From a bacterium (GTDB lineage Bacteria; Patescibacteriota; Dojkabacteria; B142; OLB20): 64,000 nt of DNA. Below are positions 5,619-49,360 of this stretch, piece by piece. How positions within the stretch are numbered: the first letter of the stretch is position 1; each line of letters begins with the position of its first letter. The notes below the pieces were generated by a model. That model searched no databases and was not told the DNA's origin. It saw only the letters and a program-made list of their open reading frames with translations. The position numbers were made by a program, and so were the translations under genes. The stretch lies in contig JAJTYI010000005.1 in NCBI GenBank assembly GCA_021463645.1, positions 680-64,679 on the forward strand, written 5' to 3'.

Positions 5619-5620
5619 AT

Positions 5621-6076: not shown

Positions 6077-6098
6077 TATTTACAAGAAATGCATATCT

Positions 6099-8575: not shown

Positions 8576-9288
8576 GGCTCACCTCCTTCTTCCTCTTCCA
8601 TAATTGTAGGTGCTTCATAGACAGTATCAGCATGATTACCATAACCTCTTTCTCTTTTGCCTTTTGCCAAATTAGATAAATCAGTTATAACATCCCTGAA
8701 CCAGCTTGGACTTGGCAAGGAAAGCAAGTTGAATTTAGCTTTCTCAGCAGCCGTTTGAACAAGCACATCACCATAATCAAAAAACGATGGTAAAAATCCG
8801 ATTATGTGAGTTGAAACATCTTCGATATTGACTAGTGCAGCTTCGGCAACAAATTTCCCTGTAAACACTCTGAAATCCACATGTAGAATTCTGAGATTAG
8901 TTACTAGATATACATCAAAATACCAGTCGAGGAAATTAGCTAATGCATATGAAACAGCTAATGAATAATAAAATAACACTATCATTAACCAATTAGAGAC
9001 AGGCAACAAGTCACTAATCTCGATTGGGGGGATTCCTCTGGATGTTAAGACTGAATTGAAGAACATCACTAAAATCGTAAGAACAATTGGGGCTAATAAA
9101 CCTACGAAAAATCGAATAACCCATCCCACATTAACTGCAATGTGACTTCTCATCAAGATATAGATACTTTCACCTGGATCTTGCGAATTGAAAGAAACAT
9201 GTTCTGGATATACCTGAAGTGCTCCAAGAGATTTGCGTTCTCTTTTTGGTAATATAGTGGACAGACTGTCCGGAATTCTTGGAGGCAT
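8572..9288 (-). CDS. Membrane protein with bacterial PH (YdbS/YdbT, DUF304-like) domain
   Basis: 238 aa. Two TM helices followed by YLVTNLRILHVDFRVFTGKF...IEDVSTHIIGFLPSFFDYGDVLVQTA, the typical bPH_2 pattern. Confidence 0.45.
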   Translation of the reverse strand: MPPRIPDSLSTILPKRERKSLGALQVYPEHVSFNSQDPGESIYILMRSHIAVNVGWVIRFFVGLLAPIVLTILVMFFNSVLTSRGIPPIEISDLLPVSNWLMIVLFYYSLAVSYALANFLDWYFDVYLVTNLRILHVDFRVFTGKFVAEAALVNIEDVSTHIIGFLPSFFDYGDVLVQTAAEKAKFNLLSLPSPSWFRDVITDLSNLAKGKRERGYGNHADTVYEAPTIMEEEEGGEP

Positions 9289-23986: not shown

Positions 23987-24610
23987 TCAAGGTGCTGGTG
24001 GTACTACACCTCCATCTGGAGTTCCTAATGGAGTTCCTCCATTCAATGGATCTTTACAATCTCCAGGGATAGCAGTTTCTGGTTGTGTTCCTGCAGCATA
24101 AGCAGCATACCAAGCGTTACAAGCAGTACATTGCGAATTTTCTACATCTGCCTTACAAATTTCACAACCATTACTATTTGGGGCACTCAAACATACCTGA
24201 GTAAGTGTTGGGTCTACTCTTCCTGCTCCAAAGAAAACGAATACTAGAACTACACCTACTATTCCTATCAACATTGCTGCTATTCCCATAAATATCGCCT
24301 TGATTGCTTTCTGTGCTTCTTCAATTTTACCAGGGTCACCTTGTGATTGGATATATTTAAATGCTGCAATCAACGCATAAACTACTGCTACAAGAATTAT
24401 TAATCCAAGTGCTATGTACAATCCTGTACGAACTCGACCTGAGATGAATGATGCTGTTCCTGAGCCATCCTCTCCGAAAAGGTTAAAAATTTCATTAATT
24501 TGTTCTGGAAGTAAATTCGAAGTTTGTGCAGAAACTGCTGTTGGTAGGATTAACACAATCCCCAACATTATAAATATACTAATGACGAACCTTAATGACA
24601 ATTTATACAT
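23987..24610 (-). CDS. VirB2/TrbC-like pilin-family protein, tandem paralogue P1 (six-Cys C-terminal tail)
   Basis: 207 aa. Signal peptide (…AVSAQ). An 82-aa core identical to P2 (ASFISGRVRTGLYIALG…SQGDPGKIEEAQKAIKA…FFGAGRVDP). A variable Cys/Pro-rich tail. Confidence 0.65.
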   Translation of the reverse strand: MYKLSLRFVISIFIMLGIVLILPTAVSAQTSNLLPEQINEIFNLFGEDGSGTASFISGRVRTGLYIALGLIILVAVVYALIAAFKYIQSQGDPGKIEEAQKAIKAIFMGIAAMLIGIVGVVLVFVFFGAGRVDPTLTQVCLSAPNSNGCEICKADVENSQCTACNAWYAAYAAGTQPETAIPGDCKDPLNGGTPLGTPDGGVVPPAP

Positions 24611-24716
24611 ACATGTAAAGTAATAATTATAAAAATTTGTAAGTTGTTAAATACTGATTAAAACTTTAAATATCTGCAATCAACTAATTTCATATCAAGA
24701 CCTTTATTCAATTATT

Positions 24717-25346
24717 TTAAGGTATATCTGTTGGTATAACCGGGTTCGGGGTAGTTCCCAACGGAGCACCTTCATTAAGCGGATCCTTACAATAATTTAG
24801 AGTATCGTCAATTACGTTTGCACTATCTCTAGCATAATCAGCGTATGCATCTTCACATGATAAACAAATAGCACTGCTTGTGTCTTCCTTACAAGCTTCA
24901 CAACCCACACTGTTTGGAGCACTTAAACACACTTGGGTAAGATTTGGATCAACTCTTCCTGCACCAAAAAATACGAATACCAATACAACCCCTACTATTC
25001 CTATTAACATCGCTGCTATTCCCATAAAAATCGCCTTGATTGCTTTCTGTGCTTCTTCAATTTTACCGGGGTCTCCTTGTGATTGAATATATTTAAATGC
25101 AGCTATCAAAGCATAGACTACTGCAACAAGTATTATTAATCCTAGTGCTATATAAAGGCCAGTTCGTACTCTACCTGAGATAAAAGAGGCTGCACCAGAA
25201 CCATCTCGACCAAACAAATCAAATATCGCTTGAATCTGTTCTGGTATGAGACTTGAATTTTGTGCACTCACACCACTAGGCAATAGTAATAATACTGTCA
25301 ACACTCCCATAAAACTAATTGTTAAATGGCTAAATTGATTTTTCAT
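24717..25346 (-). CDS. VirB2/TrbC-like pilin-family protein, tandem paralogue P2
   Basis: 209 aa. Same architecture as P1. Shares with P3 a 79-nt identical DNA stretch covering the SAPNSVGCEACKEDTSSAICLSCED segment. Confidence 0.65.
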   Translation of the reverse strand: MKNQFSHLTISFMGVLTVLLLLPSGVSAQNSSLIPEQIQAIFDLFGRDGSGAASFISGRVRTGLYIALGLIILVAVVYALIAAFKYIQSQGDPGKIEEAQKAIKAIFMGIAAMLIGIVGVVLVFVFFGAGRVDPNLTQVCLSAPNSVGCEACKEDTSSAICLSCEDAYADYARDSANVIDDTLNYCKDPLNEGAPLGTTPNPVIPTDIP

Positions 25347-25451
25347 AATTAATTATTAAATAAATAATTTAGGTTATTAATTTTTACTATTAGTAAGTTA
25401 TAGGTAGGCAATACAAAGTTTATTATTTTCAAATACTTTTTTATTAATCTA

Positions 25452-26096
25452 TTAATCAGGATCTGGAACATTTGCAGGTACTGTGCCTAACGGATCTCCT
25501 CCATCTAGAGGATCTTTGCAGAACTTATAGTTAGTATCCAAATCAGCAATTTGTGCGGCAGCATTTGCAGCAGCTGCAGCAGCCACGTCAGCATAGATAT
25601 CTTCACATGATAAACAAATAGCACTGCTTGTGTCTTCCTTACAAGCTTCACAACCCACACTGTTTGGAGCACTTAAACATACCTGAGTAAGATTTGGGTC
25701 AACTCTTCCTGCACCAAAAAATACGAATACCAGGACTACGCCGACTATTCCTATTAACATCGCTGCTATTCCCATAAAAATCGCTTTGATTGCTTTTTGT
25801 GCTTCTTCAATTTTACCGGGGTCTCCTTGTGATTGTATATATTTAAATGCGGCAATTAATGCGTAAATGACAGCTACCAGTATTATCATACCAAGAGCGA
25901 TGTACAAACCAGTACGAACTCGACCAGAGATAAATGATGCAGTTCCTGTTCCGTCTCTACCGAATAAGTCAAATATTGATTTAATCTGATCTGGTAGTAG
26001 TCCAGAATTTTGTGCTTCAACACTTAGAGGTGTTATGAACATTAATAACAAGAATGAGAAGACAACACCCAAACCGATAGTTAGTAAATTACGCAT
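25452..26096 (-). CDS. VirB2/TrbC-like pilin-family protein, tandem paralogue P3
   Basis: 214 aa. Same core as P1 and P2. The tail has an Ala-rich insert (ADVAAAAAANAAAQIADL). Confidence 0.65.
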   Translation of the reverse strand: MRNLLTIGLGVVFSFLLLMFITPLSVEAQNSGLLPDQIKSIFDLFGRDGTGTASFISGRVRTGLYIALGMIILVAVIYALIAAFKYIQSQGDPGKIEEAQKAIKAIFMGIAAMLIGIVGVVLVFVFFGAGRVDPNLTQVCLSAPNSVGCEACKEDTSSAICLSCEDIYADVAAAAAANAAAQIADLDTNYKFCKDPLDGGDPLGTVPANVPDPD

Positions 26097-26124
26097 TTCT
26101 GATATTAATTAATAAATAAATATT

Positions 26125-26694
26125 TTATTGACATAAATTGTTAAATTGAATTTGCTCTCCAGGATCAAGTGTTCCACCTCTTGCGACTTCTGCAAATAGA
26201 CCTTCACAAGTTCTGCAATCTCCACCATTGATACCCTCTGCTCTACAGCTATCACAACCGACACTATTTGGTGCACTTAAACAAGTTTGATAAAGATTTG
26301 GTTCAACTGGACTAGTTCCAAAAAATACGAACACAAGAATAACTCCTACAATGGCGATCATCATAGCTGCGATACCCATAAATATTGCCTTGATGGCTTT
26401 TTGGGCTTCTTCGATTTTTCCTGGGTCACCTTGTGATTGGATATATTTGAAAGATGCTAGTAAAGCATAAATTACCGCAACTACAATAATCACACCCAAA
26501 GCTATGAACAACCCTACCCTCACTCTACTGACAATAAAAGAAGCAGTACCAGACCCATCTGGTCCTAAGAGATTGAACAGACTTAAAATTTGATCTGGTA
26601 AAAAGGAGGGATTAGTCTGAGCACTTACTCCGACCGAGAGTAGTACTAATATAATTGGAGTCAGTAAAAGACTTGATAATACTTGTTTTTTCAT
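26125..26694 (-). CDS. VirB2/TrbC-like pilin-family protein, tandem paralogue P4 (most divergent of the four)
   Basis: 189 aa. The core is conserved (…SQGDPGKIEEAQKAIKAIFMGIAAMMIAIVG…). The six-Cys tail has different spacing and ends NNLCQ. Confidence 0.65.
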   Translation of the reverse strand: MKKQVLSSLLLTPIILVLLSVGVSAQTNPSFLPDQILSLFNLLGPDGSGTASFIVSRVRVGLFIALGVIIVVAVIYALLASFKYIQSQGDPGKIEEAQKAIKAIFMGIAAMMIAIVGVILVFVFFGTSPVEPNLYQTCLSAPNSVGCDSCRAEGINGGDCRTCEGLFAEVARGGTLDPGEQIQFNNLCQ

Positions 26695-26762
26695 AATTTA
26701 TTTATTAAAGATAACAAATTTTAAACTAATTTTATTTAAATAGCAAAACAATTACAGCAACA

Positions 26763-27500
26763 TTATTCACATCGAAAACTGTTGGGATTGTTATTAACAC
26801 TACCAGTACAAGTTAGTCCTGCACAGCATGACCCAACTGGATTCCCATTAATATTACATAACTGACCACTCGATAAGCATACATTTGAGACGTTACTGTT
26901 CCCGTGTGTGCTGTTCAGTGCACATTCACTTGGTATAGCACTTTGAAATTCAATGATATCGATATACTCCGTATCGCCATCTTCACAACAGACTACATAA
27001 TATTGAGGTCTGGTTGATCCTGCAGACTCAAGGTAATCGTCTAGAAGTTCTATATAAGATTTTCTAATCACTTTCGTAGGATCATTGGGATCGGGTTCAA
27101 ACTTGCCTTGGAAATAAAACCTTCCAGAGGCAGGACCACCTTGATTACATTGCCTTAAGTTCTCAGCCCAATTCCAAGGTGCACCAACTCCCATAAATAC
27201 AGCAGCAAAAGTAATCACTAGGAAAAACAACAGGAAATACGATATTCCGATCCATACACTTTTAATAGTTTTCCAGCCTTTTTCAATCTTCTGTGGATCT
27301 CCAAAACTTGATGTAATGCTAAATGCTCCATATATAGCAAATCCTAGCCATGCGACTACAAGAATTGCTAGGAAAAGGAACATTAGGAAACCGATAGCAG
27401 AAAAGATACCATTCGAGAAAAAACCTCCATAGGACGGTAGGTCAAAGACAAATTCAGTACCTGGAATGTAGAATTGATTTGATATTAAGCTAAAATTCAT
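26763..27500 (-). CDS. Pilin-family hairpin protein with a ~150-aa Cys-rich C-terminal ectodomain ending in a knottin-like motif
   Basis: The track ORF runs to 27656, which would overlap the upstream gene by 119 nt. The internal ATG at 27498-27500 (MNFSLISNQ…) is more plausible. The core is helix - SFGDPQKIEKGWKTIKS - helix. The C-terminus is CLSSGQLCNINGNPVGSCCAGLTCTGSVNNNPNSFRCE. Confidence 0.55.
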   Translation of the reverse strand: MNFSLISNQFYIPGTEFVFDLPSYGGFFSNGIFSAIGFLMFLFLAILVVAWLGFAIYGAFSITSSFGDPQKIEKGWKTIKSVWIGISYFLLFFLVITFAAVFMGVGAPWNWAENLRQCNQGGPASGRFYFQGKFEPDPNDPTKVIRKSYIELLDDYLESAGSTRPQYYVVCCEDGDTEYIDIIEFQSAIPSECALNSTHGNSNVSNVCLSSGQLCNINGNPVGSCCAGLTCTGSVNNNPNSFRCE

Positions 27501-27537
27501 TTGGTTAAACTTATTATTAATTATATTACAAGCTTTT

Positions 27538-28257
27538 TCACATACATTTCTTGAAACCGGCCACAGGATCAAGTACGCAGGAATCTTGTGGGTCAGCACA
27601 AACCGTATATCCTCCACAATTTCCACCTCTTGGAACAACCCTAGGCTGAGGTACAATACTTATATCAAATAAACTTCCCGTCAGTCCTAAAAGTAATGAG
27701 ACAAGTTGGATAATACCTATGAATGAGAGACTCAATATCACACCTACAACTGCATTTCTAAAAATTTTAACAGCCTTTTCGATTTTTTCTGGATTATCCG
27801 CGGCTGTTGATCTTTCCCAGACACCCCATAGTCCCATAATTACGGTGGCAAATATGATCAAACTTATCATTGCGTAGAATCCCAGCCGCACCAAAATAAC
27901 TGTACAATACGGATCGTCAGCTGGTCTATCAATCGTCTCCGGATCTGGACAAAGCTCTAATCCAAAAATATTAAATGCCTCTCTATATCTCCCAGGAATA
28001 TCGTCATACATAATTTCAAAGGATAGATTATGACAGTTAACTTGATCTGACTCGAGACAGTTTAAACCCTGGTCTACACAAGCTTTATTACATAGCGAAC
28101 TACACACAATCGGATCATTTGGAGATCTTGTTGCGAGATATTTTGAACATTCCGGATCAATTACCAGTTCTACATTAGCCCCTTGCGCATTAACACTAAA
28201 GCCCTGAATAAAAGTAACGATTAAGATTCCAAATATTAAAAATAGTAGTTTCTTCAT
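27538..28257 (-). CDS. Pilin-family hairpin protein with Cys-rich N-terminal ectodomain and 4-Cys C-terminal tail
   Basis: 239 aa. Signal peptide (…SVNAQ). A Cys-rich region of about 110 aa. The core is helix - AADNPEKIEKAVKIFRN - helix. The tail is GGNCGGYTVCADPQDSCVLDPVAGFKKCM. Confidence 0.55.
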   Translation of the reverse strand: MKKLLFLIFGILIVTFIQGFSVNAQGANVELVIDPECSKYLATRSPNDPIVCSSLCNKACVDQGLNCLESDQVNCHNLSFEIMYDDIPGRYREAFNIFGLELCPDPETIDRPADDPYCTVILVRLGFYAMISLIIFATVIMGLWGVWERSTAADNPEKIEKAVKIFRNAVVGVILSLSFIGIIQLVSLLLGLTGSLFDISIVPQPRVVPRGGNCGGYTVCADPQDSCVLDPVAGFKKCM

Positions 28258-28613
28258 GAAGGATTGGTGATTAATAAATCAATGCCAAAAATTGCCCCGA
28301 TAGTCGCAATTATCAATGGTGCAAGCATAATTAATGCAAAACCAGTCGTGGAATAACCTATTATTAAAATAGCTTTTTTCGCTTTTTCCGGATCAGCACC
28401 AGCAGTCAGCCTCATATATCCAGCATACAAAAGCATAGCCAAATAAAGCAATACAGCTATAGGCCGTATCCAACGGGAAATTGTACTAATTGAGGTTTCC
28501 AAATCTTTAAAAGCTTCACTTACAGGATTTATAATCCCCACTGCGTGACTTTCACTAGGGAAAAGGATAAATAAGACCACTATTGAAATTAATACTAAAT
28601 ATGCTTTTTTCAT
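28254..28613 (-). CDS. Minimal VirB2/TrbC-like pilin (no Cys-rich domain)
   Basis: 119 aa. Signal peptide (…SESHA). The core is helix - AGADPEKAKKAILI - helix. It has the size and topology of canonical T-pilin/TrbC. Overlaps the next gene by 4 nt. Confidence 0.6.
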   Translation of the reverse strand: MKKAYLVLISIVVLFILFPSESHAVGIINPVSEAFKDLETSISTISRWIRPIAVLLYLAMLLYAGYMRLTAGADPEKAKKAILIIGYSTTGFALIMLAPLIIATIGAIFGIDLLITNPS

Positions 28614-28620
28614 TTTGATA

Positions 28621-29784
28621 TTAGCCTAAGAAATTAATTGGTAGTAATTGTAAAAGATTGATACCCAAGAATCTCAATAATGGGATGGTAACAGCTAATG
28701 TAATCAACGCCCAGATAGATGAAGTTATCATGTCTTTTCCTTCTTGGATTTTAGCTGGATCGGTACTCTGTCTCAGAATCGATCCCCACATAATCCTCAA
28801 TACACCAAATCCACCTAACATTCCGAAACCTATTTGGAACAGTCTAGTGATGAATTCATTTTGCCTTGTATCTACACACCCAATAGAGCTATAAACGAAT
28901 GCTTTAGGTGCGTTTGGATTATTTGGGTCGATGTTCTTCATGAAGCACTCCAGACAATTTTGTCGCTCTGCTAAATCATCTATCTCTTGACATGAACTTA
29001 TATCTGGGTTGATACTGACAAGAGTTAATACTACGGGATCCACTGCTTGTTGGTATGAACAGAATAGGTCCTTCAAATCTTCACCATCTGGACCATAGAC
29101 TCCAACCATGCTTGCCCCCTGAGGTAGACAAATATAGTCAAGTGTTTGAGATTGTGTCAATGGATAACTATTTGTATTATTGTCCTCTAATAAGGTCTTC
29201 CTCTGAAAAGTAGGATTGTCAACCAAACATGCATCAGATGGGCATGTAAATAGAGGTGCTCCGAGTTTATATGGAAAACTTGAGGCTGTTGCAGTAACAT
29301 CAGTAAAAGGTGTAGACATTACAGGGTTAACACTACTATTATTATCTAAAATACATTTCCCTCCCTCATCAGATACAGTATTTCCAGGACAGCAAGTTGT
29401 CCTATTTTGATATCCTAACAAACCGATTTCTCCTATTGCACAACAACCACCCCCAGAATATTCTCCTTCAAACTTCAAATAAGGAATTGCCTTACCACCT
29501 GGACAGTATCGAACATATCGTTCATTTGCCCAACCAACTGGATCATCTATTTTTTGTATATGTAATGATCTGTCTGTCGTACATATCTTGAAGCTTTCTG
29601 CCTCTATCATCGAAGCAGTCACACTCCCACTATCCGAGTTTTTTATCATATCCCTAGTGATTTTATACTCGCCAGTCGCATTATTACAATAGTCAGACTC
29701 AACCCACGCTTGCTGTGCTCTTACTCCCTGAGGAAATACCGCAATTAACAGAAACACCCCTATGATTAATCCTAAGATTTTCAT
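28621..29784 (-). CDS. Large Cys-rich ectodomain protein with a C-terminal pilin-family hairpin
   Basis: 387 aa. Signal peptide (…GVRAQ). An ectodomain of about 300 aa with 16 Cys by my count (includes GGGCCAIGE and TTCCPG). The C-terminal core is helix - QSTDPAKIQEGKDMITS - helix. Confidence 0.55.
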   Translation of the reverse strand: MKILGLIIGVFLLIAVFPQGVRAQQAWVESDYCNNATGEYKITRDMIKNSDSGSVTASMIEAESFKICTTDRSLHIQKIDDPVGWANERYVRYCPGGKAIPYLKFEGEYSGGGCCAIGEIGLLGYQNRTTCCPGNTVSDEGGKCILDNNSSVNPVMSTPFTDVTATASSFPYKLGAPLFTCPSDACLVDNPTFQRKTLLEDNNTNSYPLTQSQTLDYICLPQGASMVGVYGPDGEDLKDLFCSYQQAVDPVVLTLVSINPDISSCQEIDDLAERQNCLECFMKNIDPNNPNAPKAFVYSSIGCVDTRQNEFITRLFQIGFGMLGGFGVLRIMWGSILRQSTDPAKIQEGKDMITSSIWALITLAVTIPLLRFLGINLLQLLPINFLG

Positions 29785-29787: not shown

Positions 29788-32364
29788 TTATTTAATTGTA
29801 TATTTATTTAAACTTTCTATGAATATTGTGCTCCCGCTTTGAATTTTCCTCTCTATAATTAATTGAGCAACTAGGTCTTCAATCGTGTCTGTCACTACCC
29901 TTCTTAATTCTCTCGCTGCGTATAAATTATTGTATCCTAAATTTGCCAACTCTTGTAGCAAGTTCCTACTATATTCAAGTTTGATACCTTTATCAAATAA
30001 CCTATCTGCAACCGACTTCATCATTAAATTGGCTATTTCTTCTACCTCCATTCTAAGCAAAGGCTTGAACATAATCAACTTATCAAATCTATTGAGGAAC
30101 TCAATCCTCAAGAAATTTCTTAAAGTTGGCATAATTGCTTCCAGAACTTCACTGTAACGACGACCTTGTGAAATTAAATCTGCAATTTCTTTCGATGCGA
30201 CATTGGAAGTTGCAATAATTATCGTATTGGTGAAAATTACCTCTCTTCCCATCCCATCGGTGATTTTTCCCTCGTCCAAAATTTGCAAGAACAAGTCAAG
30301 AACACGCGGATTTGCTTTTTCAATTTCATCAAGCAGAATTAATGCGTATGGTTTTGCTTTTACAGCTTCCGTCAAATATCCTCCAACAAATTCCTCACCT
30401 TCTTGCATTCCAATCAATCTTCCTAGATTTCTATCCTCTTGATATTCTGACATATCGAGCCTTATCATTTTATCTTCATCACCAAAGTATAGCTCAGCGA
30501 CTGTTTTTGCCAACTCGGTTTTACCAACTCCAGTTGGTCCGAAAAATAGAAAACTCGCCACAGGTCTATTTTTATTGGTAAGACCAGCTCTGGATCTTCG
30601 AAGTGCGGCTGCCACAGCGTCTACTGCTTGATGTTGACCGATAACTCTTTTATGAAGTTCAATTTCAAGTTTATTGAGAAAATCTGATTCTTTCATACTG
30701 ATACTTCCGATTTCTACACCAACTTTTCCTGCTACTAATTTATCCACAACCTCTCTGTCAACGATAGTTTTACCTCCTGCAAGTGCACGAGAAATTGCTT
30801 CTTCTAATAAATTAATTGCTTTGTCAGGTAACACCCTCTCAAAAGCGAATTTATGTGATAACTCGACAGAACGATCTGCAGCTTCAAAAGCAATTTTGAC
30901 TTTGTATGTTTTTTCAAGTTCAGGAATGAAGTCAAATAGTATTTGAAGTGCAATTTCATCAGTAGGCACCTCCATTTTCATTTTATTAAACAACGCGTCA
31001 AGAGCTTTGTATGGTTTTATGTGTCTCGTATACCCTTCAACAGAACTAGTGGCTATGATTCTGAGTTTATGGACATCCATTGCATCAGTCAAAAGATTTA
31101 TAATCTCTGCACTCAACTCTTTCTTCACATTGACCAACTCATCTAAATCATCAATCACAAGAATAATATTTTTAGCTTTTGCCACTTCTTGGACTATATT
31201 TTCGACCGTGGCTTTAAATTGTTGTTCGTTCTCAGCCAATGCGTATGCCCTATTGAAATCAAAACCAACTAAGCGCATATCTTGAATTATTTTGGGGACG
31301 TCCTCTACCACCATTTTGATCGCGAAGTTTTTGATAAATGTGGTTTTACCAACACCCGGTTGCCCCAGAACTAAAGATGCACTTGATTCTCCTGAAGTTA
31401 CCATTGCGATTAAGTTCTTTAGTTCATTTTCTCTTGCGTAAGATAATTCGAAATTACCCTGGACAATTTCCGCGGTGAAATCACGTGAAAATTTAACCAA
31501 ACTTGGGGAGAACACTGAAGTGTATGCACGATTAACCGTTGAAGTTGGTTTAAGCATACTTTTTGTTCTGATGATTTGGAGATACCTGGCTCTCTTACTG
31601 AGGTTCTGCGCCCATAGTCTCATTGCATCAACTTCATTCTCTCCTACTTCAAGTTTCAGTAGTTCGTTTTTAAGGTCGGTTTTGCAAAGATGGATAAATA
31701 GAGACAACTCGTCTGCCTTCTTGAATCCATTCTCTATTGCAATAATAAAACTCTCTCGCAAAACCAATGCTAATTTCTCTTCATCAAAATTGACATTATT
31801 AACCGTATGAATCAGATTATTTAACGTCTCAACACTCAACCCTAATCGAGTACTAGCTGTTTTGACAAGTTCGAGATAACTTAGCTCCTCTAGAATTTTC
31901 TCTAATATGTTACTTCCATCTTTCCTTGCAAGGACTTCATCAATTAAATTTATTAAATCTTTATCAAAATAGTCAGTTATATCAATCTCTGATGGATTCT
32001 CGGCCTTATCAAACTTAATGCGTAATCCATCTAAATCTCTTTGACCAAACTTGTCTAGAAAGATATTTCTATCTCTAACTAAATAAGCACCATACGAAAT
32101 CAGACCGAGTCCAAAATATAGAACTAATTTCGCAAAGGTGTCTACATAAATAATTTCGGACAAAATAAATCTAGAATTGAAATAAGCTTCGTACAAAGCG
32201 AAAAGACAAATTATCACAACTGTGAATGAAATTAATGCCCATCCAACTATGAACTCAATCTTTTGGAGTTCTTTTCTTAATCCAAACTCTTTCGATAGAT
32301 AACCAAAGTTAATTTTTAATTTTGTTTTTCTATACTCACCAAGTGAGTTGATACTTTTAAGCAT
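29788..32364 (-). CDS. Membrane-anchored Clp/Hsp100-family double-AAA+ ATPase (ClpB/ClpC-like, no obvious ClpP-docking loop)
   Basis: 858 aa. Two N-terminal TM helices (IVGWALISFTVVIICLFALY, LVLYFGLGLISYGAYLV). D1 has LGQPGVGKTT and IILVIDDLDE. D2 has VIGQHQAV…FFGPTGVGKTELAK, LILLDEIEKA and ARELRRVV. Ends 3 nt before the first pilin-family gene. Confidence 0.75.
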   Translation of the reverse strand: MLKSINSLGEYRKTKLKINFGYLSKEFGLRKELQKIEFIVGWALISFTVVIICLFALYEAYFNSRFILSEIIYVDTFAKLVLYFGLGLISYGAYLVRDRNIFLDKFGQRDLDGLRIKFDKAENPSEIDITDYFDKDLINLIDEVLARKDGSNILEKILEELSYLELVKTASTRLGLSVETLNNLIHTVNNVNFDEEKLALVLRESFIIAIENGFKKADELSLFIHLCKTDLKNELLKLEVGENEVDAMRLWAQNLSKRARYLQIIRTKSMLKPTSTVNRAYTSVFSPSLVKFSRDFTAEIVQGNFELSYARENELKNLIAMVTSGESSASLVLGQPGVGKTTFIKNFAIKMVVEDVPKIIQDMRLVGFDFNRAYALAENEQQFKATVENIVQEVAKAKNIILVIDDLDELVNVKKELSAEIINLLTDAMDVHKLRIIATSSVEGYTRHIKPYKALDALFNKMKMEVPTDEIALQILFDFIPELEKTYKVKIAFEAADRSVELSHKFAFERVLPDKAINLLEEAISRALAGGKTIVDREVVDKLVAGKVGVEIGSISMKESDFLNKLEIELHKRVIGQHQAVDAVAAALRRSRAGLTNKNRPVASFLFFGPTGVGKTELAKTVAELYFGDEDKMIRLDMSEYQEDRNLGRLIGMQEGEEFVGGYLTEAVKAKPYALILLDEIEKANPRVLDLFLQILDEGKITDGMGREVIFTNTIIIATSNVASKEIADLISQGRRYSEVLEAIMPTLRNFLRIEFLNRFDKLIMFKPLLRMEVEEIANLMMKSVADRLFDKGIKLEYSRNLLQELANLGYNNLYAARELRRVVTDTIEDLVAQLIIERKIQSGSTIFIESLNKYTIK

Positions 32365-32692
32365 TCAATAAAAAAGATGCGAATCCGTAAATCGGAATCA
32401 CAGGTAAAATCAGATAAATTATGAAAATTATCAAAATGATCGGAAGAAGAAGTAATTCAATAAATAACCCTATCAAAACCCATGTCAAACGTATAGGAAA
32501 AGCAATAATACGACCCATCCTGGTGTAGTCCTGATAAAGTGGCTGAAATAGATTTTTAAGCATCGGTGGGACATTCAACAAATTCATCAAGAACATCCAT
32601 CCACCAAAAACTTTACCCAAGACAATCTTGGATTGAACAAGGTACCACCAAATAAAATAATTTAGAAAATATCGATTTATTAAATTGAGCAT
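32357..32692 (-). CDS. Small polytopic membrane protein
   Basis: 111 aa with 2-3 hydrophobic helices. Overlaps the Clp-like gene by 8 nt. Confidence 0.4.
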   Translation of the reverse strand: MLNLINRYFLNYFIWWYLVQSKIVLGKVFGGWMFLMNLLNVPPMLKNLFQPLYQDYTRMGRIIAFPIRLTWVLIGLFIELLLLPIILIIFIIYLILPVIPIYGFASFLLNA

Positions 32693-32767
32693 TTTTAGAG
32701 TTATTTCTCTAATTGTAGTTGAATTTGGTTACTCTATCAATGAAAAATCTAAACTACTATTTACACC

Positions 32768-32796
32768 AAAAAAGATCCCGCACTAAATGCGGGATC
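32768..32796 (-). terminator. Rho-independent terminator downstream of groEL
   Basis: Minus strand: GATCCCGCA-tttag-TGCGGGATC (9-bp stem) followed by TTTTTT. It lies 27 nt after the groEL stop. Confidence 0.8.
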
Positions 32797-32822
32797 TAAC
32801 ATTCTTAGTTCGTTGGATATAA

Positions 32823-39732: not shown

Positions 39733-41022
39733 TTAAGAATAAACACCAAAATCCTCAGGAAGATACTGTCTGAAATTCTCGGGAGTAATTTCAAATCGAC
39801 TACCCTGCCCTTCTACCATTTTTTTAGCAATTTTCCGCACCAGAGTAGTGATATTTCTCTCTAATTGTCTAATTCCCGCATCGAAACCTAGAGGGCGAAT
39901 CAATAATGGCCAGACACTTTCACTGAAGACGATAACATTCGGGTCAATTCCTGTGGCTTCTATCACTTTTGGAAGAAGATAGTCCTTGGCGATGTGCATT
40001 TTCTCTTCATCGGTGTAACTAGACATACGGACAATCTCCAAACGATCAAGAAGTGCAGCACTAATTCCTCCAAGGTTATTCGCAGTACACACGAACATGA
40101 CCTTCGATAAATCAACGGGGTAGTCAATGTAGTGGTCTCGGAATGTCGCGTTCTGCTCAGGATCTAGAATTTCGAGTAATGTAGCCATGACGTCAGCTCG
40201 CACACCACCAAAATCACTAACCTTGTCAATTTCGTCCATCAATATAAGCGGATTCATCACATCAGTTCGAATGAGAGATTTGACTACTTGTCCGGGTTCA
40301 GAATCAATTTCACTTCGAGATCTACCCCTCAACTCCGAAACATGGGCTATACCTCCAAGTGAAATCCTAACAAACTGACGTCCCATTGCAAGAGCGATAG
40401 ACTTGGCAATCGAAGTTTTACCGATACCTTGTACTCCAACCAAACAAATAATTGGTGCATGAGCTGAACTTCCCTCTAGTTTCACCATTTTCTCAATTTG
40501 CGTAGGTACTTGCTGGACTTGTTGATTGACAGGCATCGGGGGGGATGTTTGTGGAATTTGTTGATTAACAGGCATCATGGCAGTCGTTTGTTGTGCCTGT
40601 TGTTGAACTGGATTCATTTGGACCTGAGGATTAATTGGATTCGATGGAACACCTCCACTCTGTTGGAGTCTTTGTAGATGCAAGATTGCAATATACTCTA
40701 AAATTCTCTCTTTTACTTGTTGCAAACCGAAATGAGTTTTATCAAGCTGATTTTTTGCGTTATTAAGGTCAAGATTATCCACTGAATACTTTTCCCATGG
40801 TATCTGGCAAATCCAAGATACATATTTAGCGATTGGTTCGTATTCTCTGGAAAAATATCCATACTTAGCAACTCTACGGAGTCTAGAGACCATAGTTTTG
40901 GTTTTTTCTAGTAAATCCTCAGGTAATTGTGCCTCAGAGAGTTCTTTCTCGAGCTGTAGAATCTCCCCCACTTCCTCTGAAGCTAGATTGGCAGTATTGT
41001 TAGTGATTTGTTTTTCGTCCAT
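39733..41022 (-). CDS. Lon-like AAA+ ATPase module without a peptidase domain
   Basis: 429 aa. LPEDLLEKTKTMVSRLRR…YVSWICQIPWEK…HFGLQQVKERILEYIA matches the pre-AAA segment of Lon. A Q/P-rich insert follows. The AAA+ module reads CLVGVQGIGKTSIAKSIALAMGRQFVRISLGG…LILMDEIDKV. The protein ends where the Lon S16 domain would begin. Confidence 0.7.
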   Translation of the reverse strand: MDEKQITNNTANLASEEVGEILQLEKELSEAQLPEDLLEKTKTMVSRLRRVAKYGYFSREYEPIAKYVSWICQIPWEKYSVDNLDLNNAKNQLDKTHFGLQQVKERILEYIAILHLQRLQQSGGVPSNPINPQVQMNPVQQQAQQTTAMMPVNQQIPQTSPPMPVNQQVQQVPTQIEKMVKLEGSSAHAPIICLVGVQGIGKTSIAKSIALAMGRQFVRISLGGIAHVSELRGRSRSEIDSEPGQVVKSLIRTDVMNPLILMDEIDKVSDFGGVRADVMATLLEILDPEQNATFRDHYIDYPVDLSKVMFVCTANNLGGISAALLDRLEIVRMSSYTDEEKMHIAKDYLLPKVIEATGIDPNVIVFSESVWPLLIRPLGFDAGIRQLERNITTLVRKIAKKMVEGQGSRFEITPENFRQYLPEDFGVYS

Positions 41023-41771: not shown

Positions 41772-42278
41772 TTATTTAGATTTTGGGGATATTACTACCC
41801 TTCTGTTTTCACCCTCTCCAGCACTAGAAGTGACAATCCCTTTTGTTTCCTTGAGTGCCATATGCACGATTCTTCGTTCGGATGGTTTCATTGGAGATAA
41901 TTCCATAGGTTGTCCTGAATTCAATACTTCATCAACAGCTCTTAAAGCATACGATACGAGGTAATCAGCTCTTTGTTTACGGTAGTCATTAATATCTAAT
42001 ATTATTCTATATTTCTCAGTAACATCTTCTTTTGAAAGAGTTTTTGTGAGAATCAATCCAAGAATTGTTTGAATGGAATCTAACATATTACCTCTAAATC
42101 CAATCAATTCTCCAAGGTTTTCCCCTGTCAAAGTTACATTTAGGTAACTGAAATCCCCACTCTCTGTAGTGTTAACAGGTTCTCCAATAGTAATCTCTGC
42201 ATCAAGACCCAATTGAGTCAGGAAATCTTGAATTAGCGATTCTGTTATTTTTTTAAGGTCATTTTCTTTTTTTGCCAT
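41772..42278 (-). CDS. jag: Jag/KhpB-like RNA-binding protein (KH + R3H)
   Basis: 168 aa. C-terminal R3H motif SPMKPSERRIVHMAL. Lies directly downstream of yidC in the conserved synteny. Confidence 0.8.
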   Translation of the reverse strand: MAKKENDLKKITESLIQDFLTQLGLDAEITIGEPVNTTESGDFSYLNVTLTGENLGELIGFRGNMLDSIQTILGLILTKTLSKEDVTEKYRIILDINDYRKQRADYLVSYALRAVDEVLNSGQPMELSPMKPSERRIVHMALKETKGIVTSSAGEGENRRVVISPKSK

Positions 42279-43584
42279 TTGATGTGTTGTCTTTTGTTTT
42301 ATTAATTTTATCTAGAAATTTAGTTTTATACTCAAGAAAACTTTGTTTTGTCTTTTCTTTATTAGTTATTAACTCTTGGATTATAACAAAGCTATTCTGT
42401 CCAGTCCAGAAAAGGCTTACTCCCGTGGGGAAAAACGCTCCAAAAAATCCCAGAGACCACACAATAGTAATCAATGGGAAAATATAGGTCATCTGCTTAG
42501 AGGATTGGGCTAGAATTTCCCCAAAATCCATATCATCTTCTTTTTTGTCTTTGTTCTTGGATGACTTTGATTTAGAATCTTTTTTCTCTGTTTTTTCTTT
42601 CTTCGCTTCAGCCATCATTGGGTTCATCCCCATTTGTACTTTTGATGCAAAGATTTGAGTGATACCAACTGAAATTGCAATTAATACATAAGGAGTGACC
42701 GTAGAAATATCAGAGAAACCGAAATCGGTAGCAACCTTAGACAAGTCTGCCCCTAGAAATGAGAAATTAAGTGGCTCACCTTTTGATATTTCTAGTGAAT
42801 CGACTTCAATTTTTCGACCATTTAAAGCAACTTCACTTTTTTCGTAATTGATTTTGGTATTAGATGGTGGACGTATGTAGGCACTAATTTTATCTAAGTC
42901 TTCTAATATAATAGGATTATCATTTTTGAATTCATAAAATTCTTCGACATAGAGCGAGATACTTGAAGTTCTCTCCTCTGAATCGTTCTCAGCTTTTTCT
43001 TCTTCACTTATTTCTCCTCTTTTCTCGTCTAATTGTTTTGTTAATTCATCTCTATTTTCATCATCAACTAGTGCGAAGTGATACGTCTTGTTTAACTCGT
43101 AACCATTCGAAACAACTTTGTAGTCAAGTGTGTACACACCAGATTCAAGTTCTGCAGTGTCATATTTTATTGAATCTTCTGGAAGTTTCTGGCTTTCGCT
43201 ATAAGCAACAGTATTAAATGCGTGTACTCCTTGATCGACAAGATTGATAATGACGTTTCTAACTTGAATTAAAAGAATCAGTGCCAAAATCATATTCAAA
43301 CAGCCACCCAGTTGACCTGGTAGATATTTTGCTTGTACTTTTGCTAATTCCTGTGCTTGTTTTTCTTGGTTTTTCTTGTATTTCTTTTTGATTGCTTCAA
43401 CTTCTTTCTGGAAGACCTTATTCTTCTCAGCGTTTTTCATTTGTCTACGTGTCAGTGGCAATGTTATCAATCTAGAAACGACAGCCAAAAGGAGTATAGC
43501 AACACCCAAGTTTCCTACGATGTCATAGAAAAACATCAATAGATTAAATGTAGGCTCGTAGAATATAGTTCGTATTATTTCCAT
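42259..43584 (-). CDS. yidC: Membrane protein insertase YidC (Oxa1 family) with a large inserted extracytoplasmic/acidic region
   Basis: 441 aa. GVAILLLAVVSRLITLPLTRRQMKNAEK…KYLPGQLGGCL and a C-terminal basic tail. Confidence 0.8.
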   Translation of the reverse strand: MEIIRTIFYEPTFNLLMFFYDIVGNLGVAILLLAVVSRLITLPLTRRQMKNAEKNKVFQKEVEAIKKKYKKNQEKQAQELAKVQAKYLPGQLGGCLNMILALILLIQVRNVIINLVDQGVHAFNTVAYSESQKLPEDSIKYDTAELESGVYTLDYKVVSNGYELNKTYHFALVDDENRDELTKQLDEKRGEISEEEKAENDSEERTSSISLYVEEFYEFKNDNPIILEDLDKISAYIRPPSNTKINYEKSEVALNGRKIEVDSLEISKGEPLNFSFLGADLSKVATDFGFSDISTVTPYVLIAISVGITQIFASKVQMGMNPMMAEAKKEKTEKKDSKSKSSKNKDKKEDDMDFGEILAQSSKQMTYIFPLITIVWSLGFFGAFFPTGVSLFWTGQNSFVIIQELITNKEKTKQSFLEYKTKFLDKINKTKDNTSNGKKRK

Positions 43585-45860: not shown

Positions 45861-48218
45861 TTGAACAACGATCAAATCATCACTGAATCCCTTTTGGTTG
45901 CAATCTCAAAATATATGCGACTTGTAAACTACATTGGAGCAGCTCAACTTTATCTCAAAGACAACTTCCTATTTGACCGTCCACTAGAAAAATCTGACAT
46001 AAAAGAAAGAGTGTTGGGTCATTGGGGTACAGTTCCTGGAATCAACTTTATCTATGCAAATCTTAATATTCTTGCGAAAAGACACAGTCAAGAATTTATG
46101 TTAATCGCAGGACCAGGACATGGCTACCCTGCTCTTCTAGCGAATCTTTATGTAGAGGGTACTCTTGGGAAATTTTATCCCAAATACAACTACTCGAAAG
46201 AAGGTTTTTCTAGCCTAATTAAGAACTTCAGTTGGCCAGGAGGTTTTCCAAGTCATGCAAATCCCGAAACACCAGGTGTCATCCTAGAAGGTGGTGAACT
46301 TGGATATTCACTTTCAAGTGCTTTTGGAGCATGTTTTGATAACCCAAATTTGATGGTCGCATGTATAGTGGGTGATGGCGAAGCTGAATCAGGTCCACTT
46401 AGCGCAGCTTGGCAAAGTGCAAAGTTCTTAAATCCCGCTGAAGACGGTGCAGTTTTACCAATCGTCCATGTCAACAAATACAAAATTTCTGGTCCCACAA
46501 TTTTTGGAACCATGTCCAATGAGGAACTTTATGATTACTTCAAAGGTCAGGGTTATCTTCCATTGATTGTTTCTGGAGATTATCTGTATGAAGGAATGCT
46601 AAATGCAATGGAAGAGGCATATCAACAAATTAAAAATATTCAAAAGAATCCAGATCAATCTAAACCCAAATGGCCAGTAGTTGTCTTAGTTAGCAAAAAA
46701 GGTTGGACAGGTCCCGAAATCGTGAAAGGAAAAATGAACGAGGATTCTTTTAGATCTCATGGTGTTCCGTTGGAGCACATCCATGAAGATAATAGTGAAT
46801 TCTTGGAATTGTCAGAGTGGTTGGAAAGCTACAATGTTTCAGAATTATTAGATGAAAATTATCGACCAATCCCCGAGATTATGGATTTAATTCCTGATGA
46901 CAAATATAAAATTGGTATGAATAAGAATTCAAACGGAGGAGAAGTTAGCAAAAAGTTAATTCTCCCGAATCTTGGATCCTTAAAGATTCAGGAAGATTCA
47001 CTTCTATCCTCTACACGAATTAGCAATATGATGGTACTTTCGGACTACTTGAGGGATGTTATCGTAAAAAATCCTAACAATTTCAGGGTGATGTCACCTG
47101 ATGAAACAGAATCAAATAAATTGGGATCACTTTTCGAAGTCACAACTCGAAGGTACAATTGGCCAGTTCCGAAAGGCTCAGAAAATCTTTCGCCCAACGG
47201 ACGAGTCATGGAGATACTTAGTGAACACACACTTCAAGGATGGCTCGAAGGATACACCCTAACTGGGAGGCACGGAATTTTCATCACATACGAAGCATTT
47301 GGAATGATTGTGGCAAGTATGATTGACCAATACACAAAATTCCTTAAGCAATCAAAAGCCGTAGAATGGAGGAAACCTGTTCCTTCATTGAATATAGTTT
47401 TAACAAGCAGTAGTTGGAGACAGGACCATAATGGTTATTCCCACCAAAACCCTGGTTTGATTACCTCGGTATTAAATGATTATTCAAACTTTGTCCGAGT
47501 TCATTTCCCAGTCGATGCAAACATGCTCCTTGCAACTGCAGAGGAAGCATTCTCAACAACAAATGTTGTCAATCTAATTATTGCAGCGAAGCGAGAACTT
47601 CCTCAATATCTATCTATCGAAGATGCAAAACAACAAATGACTACAGGAATGCACGCATGGGACTTCATAGGGAACAATAATGACAATCCAGATGTAGTTT
47701 TCACTGCGACTGGAGATTATCCAACAAAAGAAGTGATTGCAACCATCCAAATATTAAAAGAGGATTTGCCAGAATTAAATACAAGGTTTGTAAGTGTTTC
47801 TGAGATTACTTGTTTTGGTATTGGTGATCACCCTGTGATTAGCAAGATGAATGAAGAACAATTTGATGAAGTATTTACAACTCACGCCCCTATTATCTAT
47901 GCGTATCATGGCTATCCAGAAGACATTAAACAACTAATTTTTAATCATCCTTCAAGTAGACGATTTTTCATTAGAGGTTATAGCGAAAAAGGCACAACAA
48001 CTACTCCATTTGATATGCTTGTTCAGAATAATTGTAGTCGGTTCCAAATGGCAATTGACGCAATAGAGAAAGCTATGGAGAACAAAACAGAGCTGAAAGA
48101 GAAAGGAACCGAAATAATTAACAAATACAAACAATTGCTAGACAAACACCAAGCTTATACAAAAGAACATGGAGAAGATATTCCCGAAGTTACAAATTTC
48201 GTTTTTAAATTCCGATAA
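45861..48218 (+). CDS. xfp: Xylulose-5-phosphate/fructose-6-phosphate phosphoketolase
   Basis: 785 aa with a TTG start. YMRLVNYIGAAQLYLKDNFL…GHWGTVPGINFIYANLN…GPGHG…EGGELGYSLS are the family signatures. Confidence 0.93.
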   Translation: MNNDQIITESLLVAISKYMRLVNYIGAAQLYLKDNFLFDRPLEKSDIKERVLGHWGTVPGINFIYANLNILAKRHSQEFMLIAGPGHGYPALLANLYVEGTLGKFYPKYNYSKEGFSSLIKNFSWPGGFPSHANPETPGVILEGGELGYSLSSAFGACFDNPNLMVACIVGDGEAESGPLSAAWQSAKFLNPAEDGAVLPIVHVNKYKISGPTIFGTMSNEELYDYFKGQGYLPLIVSGDYLYEGMLNAMEEAYQQIKNIQKNPDQSKPKWPVVVLVSKKGWTGPEIVKGKMNEDSFRSHGVPLEHIHEDNSEFLELSEWLESYNVSELLDENYRPIPEIMDLIPDDKYKIGMNKNSNGGEVSKKLILPNLGSLKIQEDSLLSSTRISNMMVLSDYLRDVIVKNPNNFRVMSPDETESNKLGSLFEVTTRRYNWPVPKGSENLSPNGRVMEILSEHTLQGWLEGYTLTGRHGIFITYEAFGMIVASMIDQYTKFLKQSKAVEWRKPVPSLNIVLTSSSWRQDHNGYSHQNPGLITSVLNDYSNFVRVHFPVDANMLLATAEEAFSTTNVVNLIIAAKRELPQYLSIEDAKQQMTTGMHAWDFIGNNNDNPDVVFTATGDYPTKEVIATIQILKEDLPELNTRFVSVSEITCFGIGDHPVISKMNEEQFDEVFTTHAPIIYAYHGYPEDIKQLIFNHPSSRRFFIRGYSEKGTTTTPFDMLVQNNCSRFQMAIDAIEKAMENKTELKEKGTEIINKYKQLLDKHQAYTKEHGEDIPEVTNFVFKFR

Positions 48219-49360
48219 TGGAACATTTACTCTCTGTAAATGCAGGTAGTACCTCAGTTAAATATAAATTGTTTGACGCTAAATTACACGAGGTTCTTTT
48301 CGGACATATTGAGAATATTAAAGGAAAATTTGTCTCGAAACTTGTAAAAAATGAGGAGAAATATGTTTGGGAAATCACTGAGAGTGAATTTAAAAAACCA
48401 CATCTTCTAGTCGCAAAAGAGATTTCTGGCTATGAGCTTTCAAAAATTGGTTTTAGAATTGTACATGGGGGTGAGAAATTCACAGAACCTACAAAACTCA
48501 CAAATAAGGTGATTGATGATCTCGAACTGCTAAATGATATGGCACCTCTACATAATCCACCCGCTATCAGGATTATTCGACTGTTCAAGAAGATTTTCCC
48601 AGAAATAAAAATGTATGGAGTGTTCGATACGGCTTTCCATTCGACCATAAATCCAGAACAATTTCTGTACTCTCTTCCTTATGATTTATACCAAAAGCAT
48701 AAAATCAGAAAATACGGTTTTCATGGAATTTCCCATCAATACATCTACGAACAAATCTCCACACTTGAGAAAAAGAACAAGAAAGTAATTTCATGTCATC
48801 TAGGAGGTGGCGCAAGCATCACGGCTATCAAAGATGGAAAAAGCTACGACACCTCAATGGGTTTTACTCCTCTAGAAGGATTAACAATGGCAACAAGATC
48901 TGGAGATATCGATTCGGGAATTATATTTTACCTAGTTGAGCGGAAACTCTACCCCCTTAAGGAACTCAAAAATCTGATGAATCATTTCAGCGGACTGATG
49001 GGAATCTCAGGAATCACATCAGATATGAGGAAATTACTCGAACTGGAGAAAAAAGGCAACAAACGAGCGCACTTAGCTATTGAAATATATATTTATGACA
49101 TTGTGAGATACATCGGTGCATATATCGTAGCTCTTGGTGGGCTAGATGTTTTAGCATTTAGTGGCGGAGTTGGTTCAGGCTCCGATGTCCTCAGAGAACG
49201 TATTTGTGAAGCACTCACTGCTTATAACATACGTATATCTAGCAAAAACAAAGGAAAAATTAATGTTGAAGAGAATCTGAAAATTAGTTCTAGAGGTTCG
49301 CTACCTGTTTGGATAATTCCAACGGACGAAGAAAAAATGATCGCTAAAAGCATTATTTAG
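48218..49360 (+). CDS. ackA: Acetate kinase
   Basis: 380 aa. LSVNAGSTSVKYKLF, GFRIVHGG, FDTAFH, YGFHGISH and the CHLGGGASI motif. The start overlaps the xfp stop (TAATG). Confidence 0.93.
   Translation: MEHLLSVNAGSTSVKYKLFDAKLHEVLFGHIENIKGKFVSKLVKNEEKYVWEITESEFKKPHLLVAKEISGYELSKIGFRIVHGGEKFTEPTKLTNKVIDDLELLNDMAPLHNPPAIRIIRLFKKIFPEIKMYGVFDTAFHSTINPEQFLYSLPYDLYQKHKIRKYGFHGISHQYIYEQISTLEKKNKKVISCHLGGGASITAIKDGKSYDTSMGFTPLEGLTMATRSGDIDSGIIFYLVERKLYPLKELKNLMNHFSGLMGISGITSDMRKLLELEKKGNKRAHLAIEIYIYDIVRYIGAYIVALGGLDVLAFSGGVGSGSDVLRERICEALTAYNIRISSKNKGKINVEENLKISSRGSLPVWIIPTDEEKMIAKSII

Follow-up and report, generated by a model that had tools for sequence, protein, structure and literature searches.

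What does a Clp/Hsp100 chaperone do when it is tethered to a membrane and lacks the elements through which its relatives engage ClpP or DnaK? To our knowledge, all characterized bacterial Hsp100s are soluble and have ClpP or DnaK as a working partner or, in the manner of ClpV, serve a single dedicated substrate that is itself soluble. The question is raised by an 858-residue Clp protein encoded in a 64,000-nucleotide stretch of Dojkabacteria contig JAJTYI010000005.1 (positions 680 to 64,679), called the window here, which has a GC content of ~36% and is 97% identical over the matched region to a locus (L007) in JAGQLL010000019.1 from Candidatus Dojkabacteria (WS6) of the Candidate Phyla Radiation (CPR)/Patescibacteria lineage. 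The original prediction, made from the letters of the window, described this protein as a dedicated membrane-proximal unfoldase or extractase whose clients may be the adjacent hairpin proteins. Of that proposal the membrane tether and the adjacency to the hairpin proteins stand, a dedication to pilins does not, and the activity and the clients are matters of inference. The reading that we favor, which we hold with about as much confidence as doubt, is an unfoldase or extractase that faces the membrane, needs neither ClpP nor DnaK, acts with a small membrane partner protein, and has pilins as its likely lineage-specific clients. The protein and the parts of its N-terminal region lie as follows.

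29788..32364, minus strand: membrane-anchored class-I Clp/Hsp100 ATPase, 858 aa, ATG start (open reading frame list, Pfam, AlphaFold2, Foldseek)
32185..32256, minus strand: transmembrane helix 1, aa 37-60 (Kyte-Doolittle, within AlphaFold2 helix 30-63)
32080..32136, minus strand: transmembrane helix 2, aa 77-95 (Kyte-Doolittle, AlphaFold2 helix 77-95)
31552..31989, minus strand: Clp_N-like helical N-domain, aa 126-271 (Foldseek on a model of residues 1-300)
31516..31554, minus strand: clade-specific linker motif LKPTSTVNRAYTS, aa 271-283 (alignments of homologues)

The order of domains along the protein is transmembrane (TM) hairpin, Clp_N-like domain, degenerate D1, active D2, and D2-small. 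Pfam matches were obtained to AAA, AAA_lid_9, AAA_2 (5e-51), and ClpB_D2-small (7e-17). The AlphaFold2 model, built from a 75-sequence alignment, has a mean predicted local distance difference test score (pLDDT) of 85.5, and Foldseek matched it to ClpC and ClpB with E=1e-51 and a target TM-score of ~0.86 over the rings. Tandem AAA+ modules, AAA_lid_9 after D1, an AAA_2-type D2, and D2-small together give the layout of a class-I two-ring Hsp100. Scores against the NCBIfam models fall well below the cut-offs, with the best match to ClpB (TIGR03346; 444.8 bits, cut-off 1232), then ClpV (TIGR03345; 374.4 bits, cut-off 885), ClpA (TIGR02639; 374 bits, cut-off 993), and ClpK/ClpG (~360 bits, cut-off 1900). 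By these measures the protein is a member of the class-I Hsp100 superfamily that fails the defining tests of ClpB, ClpA/C/E, and ClpV. No protease domain, M41 or other, was found in it, its rings being of the Hsp100 type by Pfam and Foldseek, and no type VI secretion system (T6SS) genes were found among the window open reading frames (ORFs) scanned against Pfam. A role in defense was considered and rejected because PADLOC returned only generic D2-type AAA matches (DolB, PDC-M37B) with no defense-system context.

The two strongly hydrophobic N-terminal helices of the original prediction, and with them the tether, are confirmed by hydropathy, homologues, structure prediction, and charge distribution. 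Helix 1 reaches a Kyte-Doolittle peak of 2.68 (aa 39-57; family mean 2.17) and helix 2 a peak of 1.74 (aa 71-89; family mean 1.43). Across 85 full-length homologues, which are 33-92% identical, the hairpin varies in sequence and keeps its hydrophobicity. AlphaFold2 models the hairpin as helices 30-63 and 77-95 with a pLDDT of ~90, the 10-residue blocks of the first helix ranging from 75 to 94. Lys and Arg residues together number 3.55 ahead of helix 1 and 5.05 past helix 2, against 1.13 in the loop of 16 residues between them. The positive-inside rule fits an N-in/C-in hairpin, which would place the ATPase on the cytoplasmic side. The notion that the hydrophobic N-terminus is a mis-called artefact in front of what is really a soluble ClpB/ClpC-like chaperone draws on the lack of an obvious Shine-Dalgarno sequence before the ATG, and we find it scarcely credible. 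The hairpin is kept in all 85 of those homologues and a hydrophobic segment in 90 of 91 representatives of the wider clade discussed below, and the AlphaFold2 model is confident. A true start farther downstream, which the original prediction had named as a way in which it could be wrong, fails on inspection: the earliest alternative in-frame start is residue 50, inside helix 1, and the ATG of the Clp gene overlaps the stop codon of the gene upstream by 8 nt.

Between the hairpin and the rings lies a region that the original prediction called Clp_N-like, a description that the fold supports and the sequence does not. A separate model of residues 1-300 (pLDDT 82) found its best Foldseek matches in Plasmodium falciparum HSP101 (4iod), ClpA (1lzw/1r6o), ClpC (2y1r), and Hsp104 (5u2u), with probabilities of 0.85-1.0 and target TM-scores of 0.5-0.64 at E-values of only 0.25-1.6. 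Pfam Clp_N has no match in the window protein, and an N-terminal sequence profile run against PDB sequences recovered ClpC N-domains only, non-significantly (E ~0.5). Because the sequence profile is non-significant, the Clp_N assignment is made from the fold search. TM-type relatives at a greater distance do have a Pfam Clp_N domain. The linker motif that follows has Lys272, Pro273, Asn278, Arg279, and Thr282 invariant or nearly so in two alignments of homologues; it is found in other TM-type CPR Clps and is missing from canonical ones.

The second defining property of this protein is what it lacks. E. coli ClpA aligns to it as one stretch (query 303-845 to ClpA 183-729), whereas alignments to ClpB and ClpC are interrupted at the D1-D2 junction, where the window protein has a ~60-residue gap relative to ClpC-like proteins. 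The spacing from one Walker A motif to the other is 275 aa, compared with ~338 in ClpC-like proteins and 402 in true ClpB. No M-domain was found in the ClpA, ClpB, and ClpC alignments or by Walker A spacing, and coupling to DnaK is not expected because the M-domain coiled coil is absent. The helix-loop-helix that follows D2 sensor-1 has the same length as that of Thermus thermophilus ClpB and reads ADLISQGRRYSE (including ISQGRRY) where ClpB has LQKGWPYE. At this same point the ClpP tripeptide is inserted in other proteins, as in FAGFGG of Staphylococcus aureus ClpC and GIGFDF of P0116. No ClpP-docking [LIV]-G-[FL] tripeptide occurs in the helix-loop-helix of the window protein, and a scan for the tripeptide pattern matched just two of the 91 clade representatives. 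The protein is thus predicted to be unable to dock the ClpP protease, and the pipeline label "ATP-dependent Clp protease ATP-binding subunit ClpC" is misleading for that reason. The alignments uphold the original prediction in both respects, no long M-domain coiled coil and no IGF/LGF-type loop, and so its picture of a membrane-tethered Hsp100 with neither element was correct.

The state of the two rings required a larger correction. Every D1 and D2 motif that the original prediction had quoted (GQPGVGKTT, LILLDEIEKA, and sensor-2) is present in the translated ORF, and its conclusion that both AAA+ modules are intact does not hold for D1.

30775..31479, minus strand: degenerate D1 AAA+ module, aa 296-530 (alignments to ClpC, ClpB, and canonical and TM-type homologues)
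31339-31365, minus strand: D1 Walker A GQPGVGKTT, aa 334-342, kept
31207-31242, minus strand: D1 pore-loop equivalent, without Tyr
31138-31167, minus strand: D1 Walker B-like IDD, catalytic Glu missing
30985-31005, minus strand: D1 Arg-finger equivalent, both Arg missing
30055..30687, minus strand: catalytically complete D2 AAA+ module, aa 560-770 (Pfam, alignments)
30505-30540, minus strand: D2 Walker A GPTGVGKTELAK, aa 609-620
30367-30411, minus strand: D2 shortened pore loop
30313-30342, minus strand: D2 Walker B LILLDEIEKA, aa 675-684
30133-30198, minus strand: D2 ClpB-type helix-loop-helix without IGF/L
30082-30102, minus strand: D2 Arg finger EFLNRFD
29821..30054, minus strand: D2-small domain (Pfam ClpB_D2-small 7e-17)
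29893-29919, minus strand: sensor-2 AARELRR(VV), in D2-small

Where canonical D1 rings have ILFIDE, KYRGEFE, and ALERRF at the Walker B, pore loop, and Arg fingers, the window protein has ILVIDD, ENEQQFK, and ALDALF. These losses are family-wide: in the family alignment the catalytic position is D, N, G, or similar and the finger positions have no conserved Arg, with Walker A (GxPGVGKT) nearly invariant. Since Walker A is kept and the catalytic Glu, pore-loop Tyr, and Arg fingers are lost, D1 probably binds nucleotide but does not hydrolyze it or grip substrate. D2 is catalytically complete, its Walker A, Walker B, sensor-1 (TSN), Arg finger, and sensor-2 being invariant or nearly so across the family alignment, and has a noncanonical pore loop. 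The loop in the window protein has its aromatic residue in EEFVGG instead of GYVG and is 2 aa shorter; in the Dojkabacteria family it spans 11-12 residues versus the canonical 13, with the consensus xQEGEEFxGGY. The protein therefore looks like a single working ATPase ring and not a two-motor machine. One could imagine instead a nonthreading scaffold or regulatory switch, in which nucleotide cycling by D2 remodels or gates a membrane complex without polypeptide translocation. A D1 that is catalytically dead and has no pore-loop Tyr is what such a switch would show, and most relatives outside Dojkabacteria have no aromatic residue in the D2 loop and about half have no D1 Walker A. Within the Dojkabacteria family, however, 84 of 85 D2 pore loops keep an aromatic residue and the D2 catalytic residues are invariant, as a working translocase needs, and we consider the switch improbable.

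If D2 is the motor, the next question is what the machine works with. The original prediction named the adjacent hairpin proteins as possible clients and missed the gene directly upstream, which proved to be the invariant genetic partner.

32357..32692, minus strand: ~110-aa membrane partner (111-aa ORF), its stop overlapping the Clp start by 8 nt

The partner carries the motifs WWY and LKNxFxP(M/L)Y(Q/G)D..G..(S/A)F..R (LKNLFxPLYQD..G..I.F..R in the window form), followed by a ~37-residue hydrophobic tail. Its gene lies directly upstream of the TM-type Clp gene in all 15 loci in which the upstream flank is present (the window and members of the sets L001-L005, L007-L011, L087-L090, and L092); in L090 and L092 the position is taken by small ORFs (107 and 109 aa) that have no annotation. 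In a Daviesbacteria homologue (P0109, locus L006) the partner domain is fused at the Clp N-terminus (hidden Markov model [HMM] E=1.3e-10), a Rosetta-stone fusion of partner and ATPase. The spacing between the two genes is mostly from a 26-nt overlap to a 6-nt gap, with 0-8 nt of overlap or gap being typical, from which we expect that they are usually translationally coupled. The window partner has no match in Pfam or NCBIfam, even at a Pfam E<=1 and for four diverse members of the family. A single-sequence, word-based search with the partner found Dojkabacteria only, and a profile reached further, to 514 clusters. The informative source names among the 120 partner clusters listed are all "hypothetical protein" except for one from JGI, "small-conductance mechanosensitive channel." Starting from three small proteins that the profile had found (Nomurabacteria CP060223.1, OW818634.1, and one from Magasanikbacteria), the next gene is in each case a TM-type Clp of 880-904 aa. 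Partner and ATPase would together be a conserved, probably important, and wholly unannotated membrane machine of CPR/Patescibacteria.

Constant pairing with a small polytopic membrane protein, once as a fusion, also invites comparison with HSP101 and EXP2 in the Plasmodium translocon of exported proteins (PTEX), and by analogy the ATPase might be an export motor that feeds unfolded cytoplasmic proteins into a channel formed by the partner and twelve anchor helices. The best N-domain match in Foldseek is that of HSP101, and CPR bacteria are epibionts, which have to deliver proteins. The geometry argues the other way. In Hsp100s the polypeptide enters at the N-domain/D1 face and leaves at the D2 face, and an entry-side anchor with a ~30-residue linker would point the exit face away from the membrane. 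The partner, moreover, is only ~110 aa long, and Pfam detected no secretion-related domains. An export motor therefore seems unlikely to us.

How widely this architecture occurs was addressed by searching 1.84 billion representative proteins with a profile made from the first 300 residues. At E<=1e-3 the profile matched 546 clusters, of which 291 also pass E<=1e-10 and 63 pass E<=1e-30. Besides the near-universal hydrophobic segment, the 91 full-length representatives of the resulting clade have Walker A spacings of 268-285 and not a single KYRGEFE, and the D1 Walker A is also lost in about half of them. Eighteen TM-type homologues outside the Dojkabacteria family likewise have neither KYRGEFE nor ERRF, with a Walker A spacing of ~277 or a lost D1 Walker A, whereas 12 canonical ClpC-like homologues carry both motifs, have a spacing of ~338, and show no hydrophobic segment. 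Membrane anchor, dead D1, and M-domain loss thus co-vary. A locus search by alignment returned mostly actinobacterial Clp genes through the generic Walker A pattern, leaving L007-L011 as usable loci. All named clade members are Patescibacteria (CPR): Dojkabacteria, Daviesbacteria, Magasanikbacteria, Nomurabacteria, and "Patescibacteria group." We define the clade by a TM hairpin, the LKPxxTVNRAxT linker, a D1 lacking catalytic Glu, Tyr, and Arg fingers, the absence of an M-domain, and a gene directly upstream for a small WWY/FxPxYxD membrane protein; the window protein shows every one of these features. In one CPR locus (L088, OW818634.1) a canonical ClpB with a Walker A spacing of 402 and both KYRGEFE and ERRF divergently adjoins the pair (3210-5849, minus strand, beside 6001-9052, plus strand), so the anchored form is neither redundant with ClpB nor simply its CPR version. 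No description of a membrane-anchored Hsp100 in CPR was found in the literature searched; the clade is apparently undescribed, a class-I Hsp100 variant with a new combination of features.

Some variation in the clade lies ahead of the anchor, where DnaJ-type CxxCxGxG zinc-finger motifs occur, singly or as two, in many of the 900-930-aa forms (among non-Dojkabacteria members P0090, P0092, P0101, and P0104, also P0170, P0174, and P0188), and the Dojkabacteria form has a short beta-hairpin at the corresponding position.

Which clients the machine might serve in Dojkabacteria is suggested by the genes with which it is grouped.

32797-32773, minus strand: intrinsic-terminator-like hairpin after groEL, 11-bp stem (consensus scan only)
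32740-32712, minus strand: promoter-like TTGATA-17-TACAAT before the partner gene (consensus scan only)
23987..29784, minus strand: eight VirB2/T4SS_pilin-like secreted two-helix hairpin proteins (Pfam, gene spacing)
23960-23935, minus strand: next strong minus-strand terminator, after the last pilin-like gene

The terminator-like and promoter-like sites predict an operon boundary between groEL and the partner gene (32712..32797), and the junctions from the Clp gene onward are gaps of 3 nt and 7 nt and one overlap of 4 nt. From the terminators, the promoter-like site, and this tight spacing we predict co-transcription of the pair with the eight VirB2-like proteins, in agreement with the adjacency that the original prediction had noted. 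Pfam T4SS_pilin (PF18895; T4SS, type IV secretion system) scores 39.1 bits, above threshold, for 28254-28613 and more weakly in four other members; two have no match, and 23987-24610 was outside the scan. Pilin-type genes lie 3' of Clp on the same strand in eight of eight evaluable Dojkabacteria-family loci spanning 33-97% identity (the window, L001-L003, L007, and L090-L092). In L092 a reverse-strand gene parts groEL from the pair, yet here too Clp overlaps its downstream neighbor, by 4 nt. VirB2 arrays in CPR have been described, including an essential one in Southlakia (bioRxiv 10.1101/2025.01.22.634366), in a paper that makes no mention of Clp, AAA, or chaperones.

Several features of the pilin cluster are of interest on their own. 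Four tandem paralogues (23987-26694, minus strand; 207, 209, 214, and 189 aa) are almost the same in signal peptide and hairpin core and diverge in their Cys-rich C-terminal tails, the pattern expected of variable surface tips. Two further pilin-like ORFs (26763-27656 and 27538-28257, both minus strand) are listed with a 119-nt overlap; the downstream one is probably over-extended at its TTG start and likely begins in reality at the internal Met of MNFSLISNQ. A VirD4/TraG-like coupling ATPase is part of this conserved Dojkabacteria neighborhood, encoded at 2296-4794 (minus strand) of the window and, in L002, directly upstream of the pair (6714-9056, plus strand). No VirB4 was found among the window ORFs scanned against Pfam.

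The same neighborhoods can be read differently. The pair might be a housekeeping disaggregase or extractase for membrane-protein quality control in CPR that accepts any misfolded or mis-inserted client, possibly passing it to FtsH, with the pilin adjacency as inherited synteny. It occurs across Nomurabacteria, Magasanikbacteria, Daviesbacteria, and other Patescibacteria beside non-pilin genes (mraZ/rsmH/ftsL, TGT/recO, and MreC/PBP genes), and in Dojkabacteria it usually sits 3' of groES-groEL. Set against this are the tight coupling to pilin-type genes (3-nt gaps, 4- to 17-nt overlaps), its persistence at 33% identity and where groEL is uncoupled, and the strong terminator that parts groEL from the pair in the window. 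We regard the housekeeping role as possible, if on the whole doubtful.

In the mechanism that we favor, a hexamer would sit at the inner face of the membrane with its N-domain/D1 entry face pointing toward the bilayer, given that the anchor is N-terminal and the linker only ~30 residues. D1 would be an assembly ring stabilized by nucleotide, leaving D2 as the only motor. With its small partner, the machine would grip and pull polypeptides that are embedded in or close to the membrane, and clients would be extracted or unfolded without proteolysis and without DnaK. Since in Dojkabacteria an operon of VirB2-like two-helix pilins opens with the pair, pilin subunits are the most probable clients there, and the machine would dislocate them from the membrane in the course of assembly, recycling, or quality control. 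A bolder version casts partner and anchored Hsp100 as a two-component, CPR-specific, protease-free dislocase of membrane proteins that Dojkabacteria have recruited as an assembly/retraction motor, pulling VirB2-like pilins from the bilayer for an unusual monoderm T4SS-like surface apparatus. In classical systems the extraction of pilins from the bilayer is attributed to VirB4. We advance this version tentatively and think it rather unlikely.

Comparison with known systems helps to place such a machine. With ClpB/Hsp104 the window protein shares the class-I layout (N-domain, D1, D2, D2-small) and a D2 helix-loop-helix of ClpB length without IGF/L, and it differs in having no M-domain, no D1 catalytic Glu, Tyr, or Arg fingers, and a membrane anchor. 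Its D1-D2 junction of ClpA-like length, Clp_N-like fold, and best structural matches (ClpC hexamer chains) recall ClpA/ClpC/ClpE, from which it is set apart by the missing ClpP tripeptide, the absence of a UVR or short M-domain, the dead D1, and the anchor. ClpV/TssH of the T6SS is likewise an Hsp100 without a ClpP loop, is genetically tied to a secretion apparatus, and recycles structural subunits; it is the nearest functional analogy for the pilin-operon context, although it is soluble, has a middle domain, and sits in T6SS loci. Plasmodium HSP101 also works at a membrane with dedicated membrane partners and supplied the top N-domain match in Foldseek (4iod), but it has no TM segment of its own, keeps its M-domain and active rings, and docks the pore through the D2 face. 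Outside the Hsp100s, Msp1/ATAD1 and FtsH extract membrane proteins through a pore whose entrance an N-terminal anchor brings to the bilayer, and Pex1/Pex6 combines an inactive D1 ring with a D2 ring that acts as motor, a small membrane protein (Pex15/Pex26) keeping it at the membrane. All of these belong to other AAA+ clades (classic-clade single or type-II rings, with a protease domain in FtsH); in sequence they are related to the window protein no further than the AAA+ fold, and only the likely mode of action is alike; what Msp1 and FtsH would have in common with the window protein is the geometry of N-terminal anchoring alone.

Several observations weigh against the extractase reading and should be kept in view. 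The hydrophobicity of TM helix 2 is just moderate. The unfoldase or extractase activity, the substrate, the hexamer, and the orientation of the rings are all things that we infer. Of 18 sequences from outside Dojkabacteria, 17 lack an aromatic residue in a D2 pore loop of 7-9 aa, which makes canonical threading uncertain for the clade as a whole, and threading may not be universal in it. No pilins were detected beside the pair in L004-L006 and L009-L011 with an HMM that was built from window sequences and may miss distant VirB2 relatives, or in L004-L006 and L087-L089 with Pfam. A pilin role cannot be ancestral if, as these results indicate, pilins are missing beside the pair outside Dojkabacteria, and the word "dedicated" in the original prediction has to be given up, the same architecture recurring across CPR lineages in housekeeping contexts. 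Finally, the linkage to pilins within the class could reflect inherited synteny and not function.

If the extractase reading is right, an anchor, a pseudo-ATPase D1, and an obligatory partner would amount to a new operating mode for a textbook chaperone family, spread over hundreds of clusters. It would supply a candidate machine for the CPR/Patescibacteria cell envelope and epibiotic interface, and the link to VirB2-like pilin arrays offers a testable hypothesis for pilin handling in a monoderm T4SS.

Other genes in the window deserve brief mention. A 429-aa protein (39733-41022, minus strand) combines AAA and Lon_lid with no Lon protease domain detected and may be a second stand-alone AAA+ unfoldase. 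A YidC/60KD_IMP homologue (42259-43584, minus strand) has the 163-position profile stretched over residues 27-409, which implies a large insertion in this YidC-type insertase. An SMC/RecF-like AAA protein of 721 aa (11179-13344, minus strand; AAA_27, AAA_15, AAA_23) shows a weak Intein_splicing match over residues 558-699 (E=8e-4). The sole tRNA in the window (1026-1099, plus strand) is a tRNA-Ile with the anticodon TAT (UAU); decoding AUA with a UAU tRNA-Ile is a minority solution among bacteria, most of which rely on a lysidine-modified CAU tRNA. The genes of a phosphoketolase (XFP) and an acetate kinase form a pair (45861-49360, plus strand) that points to a phosphoketolase-based fermentative core metabolism.

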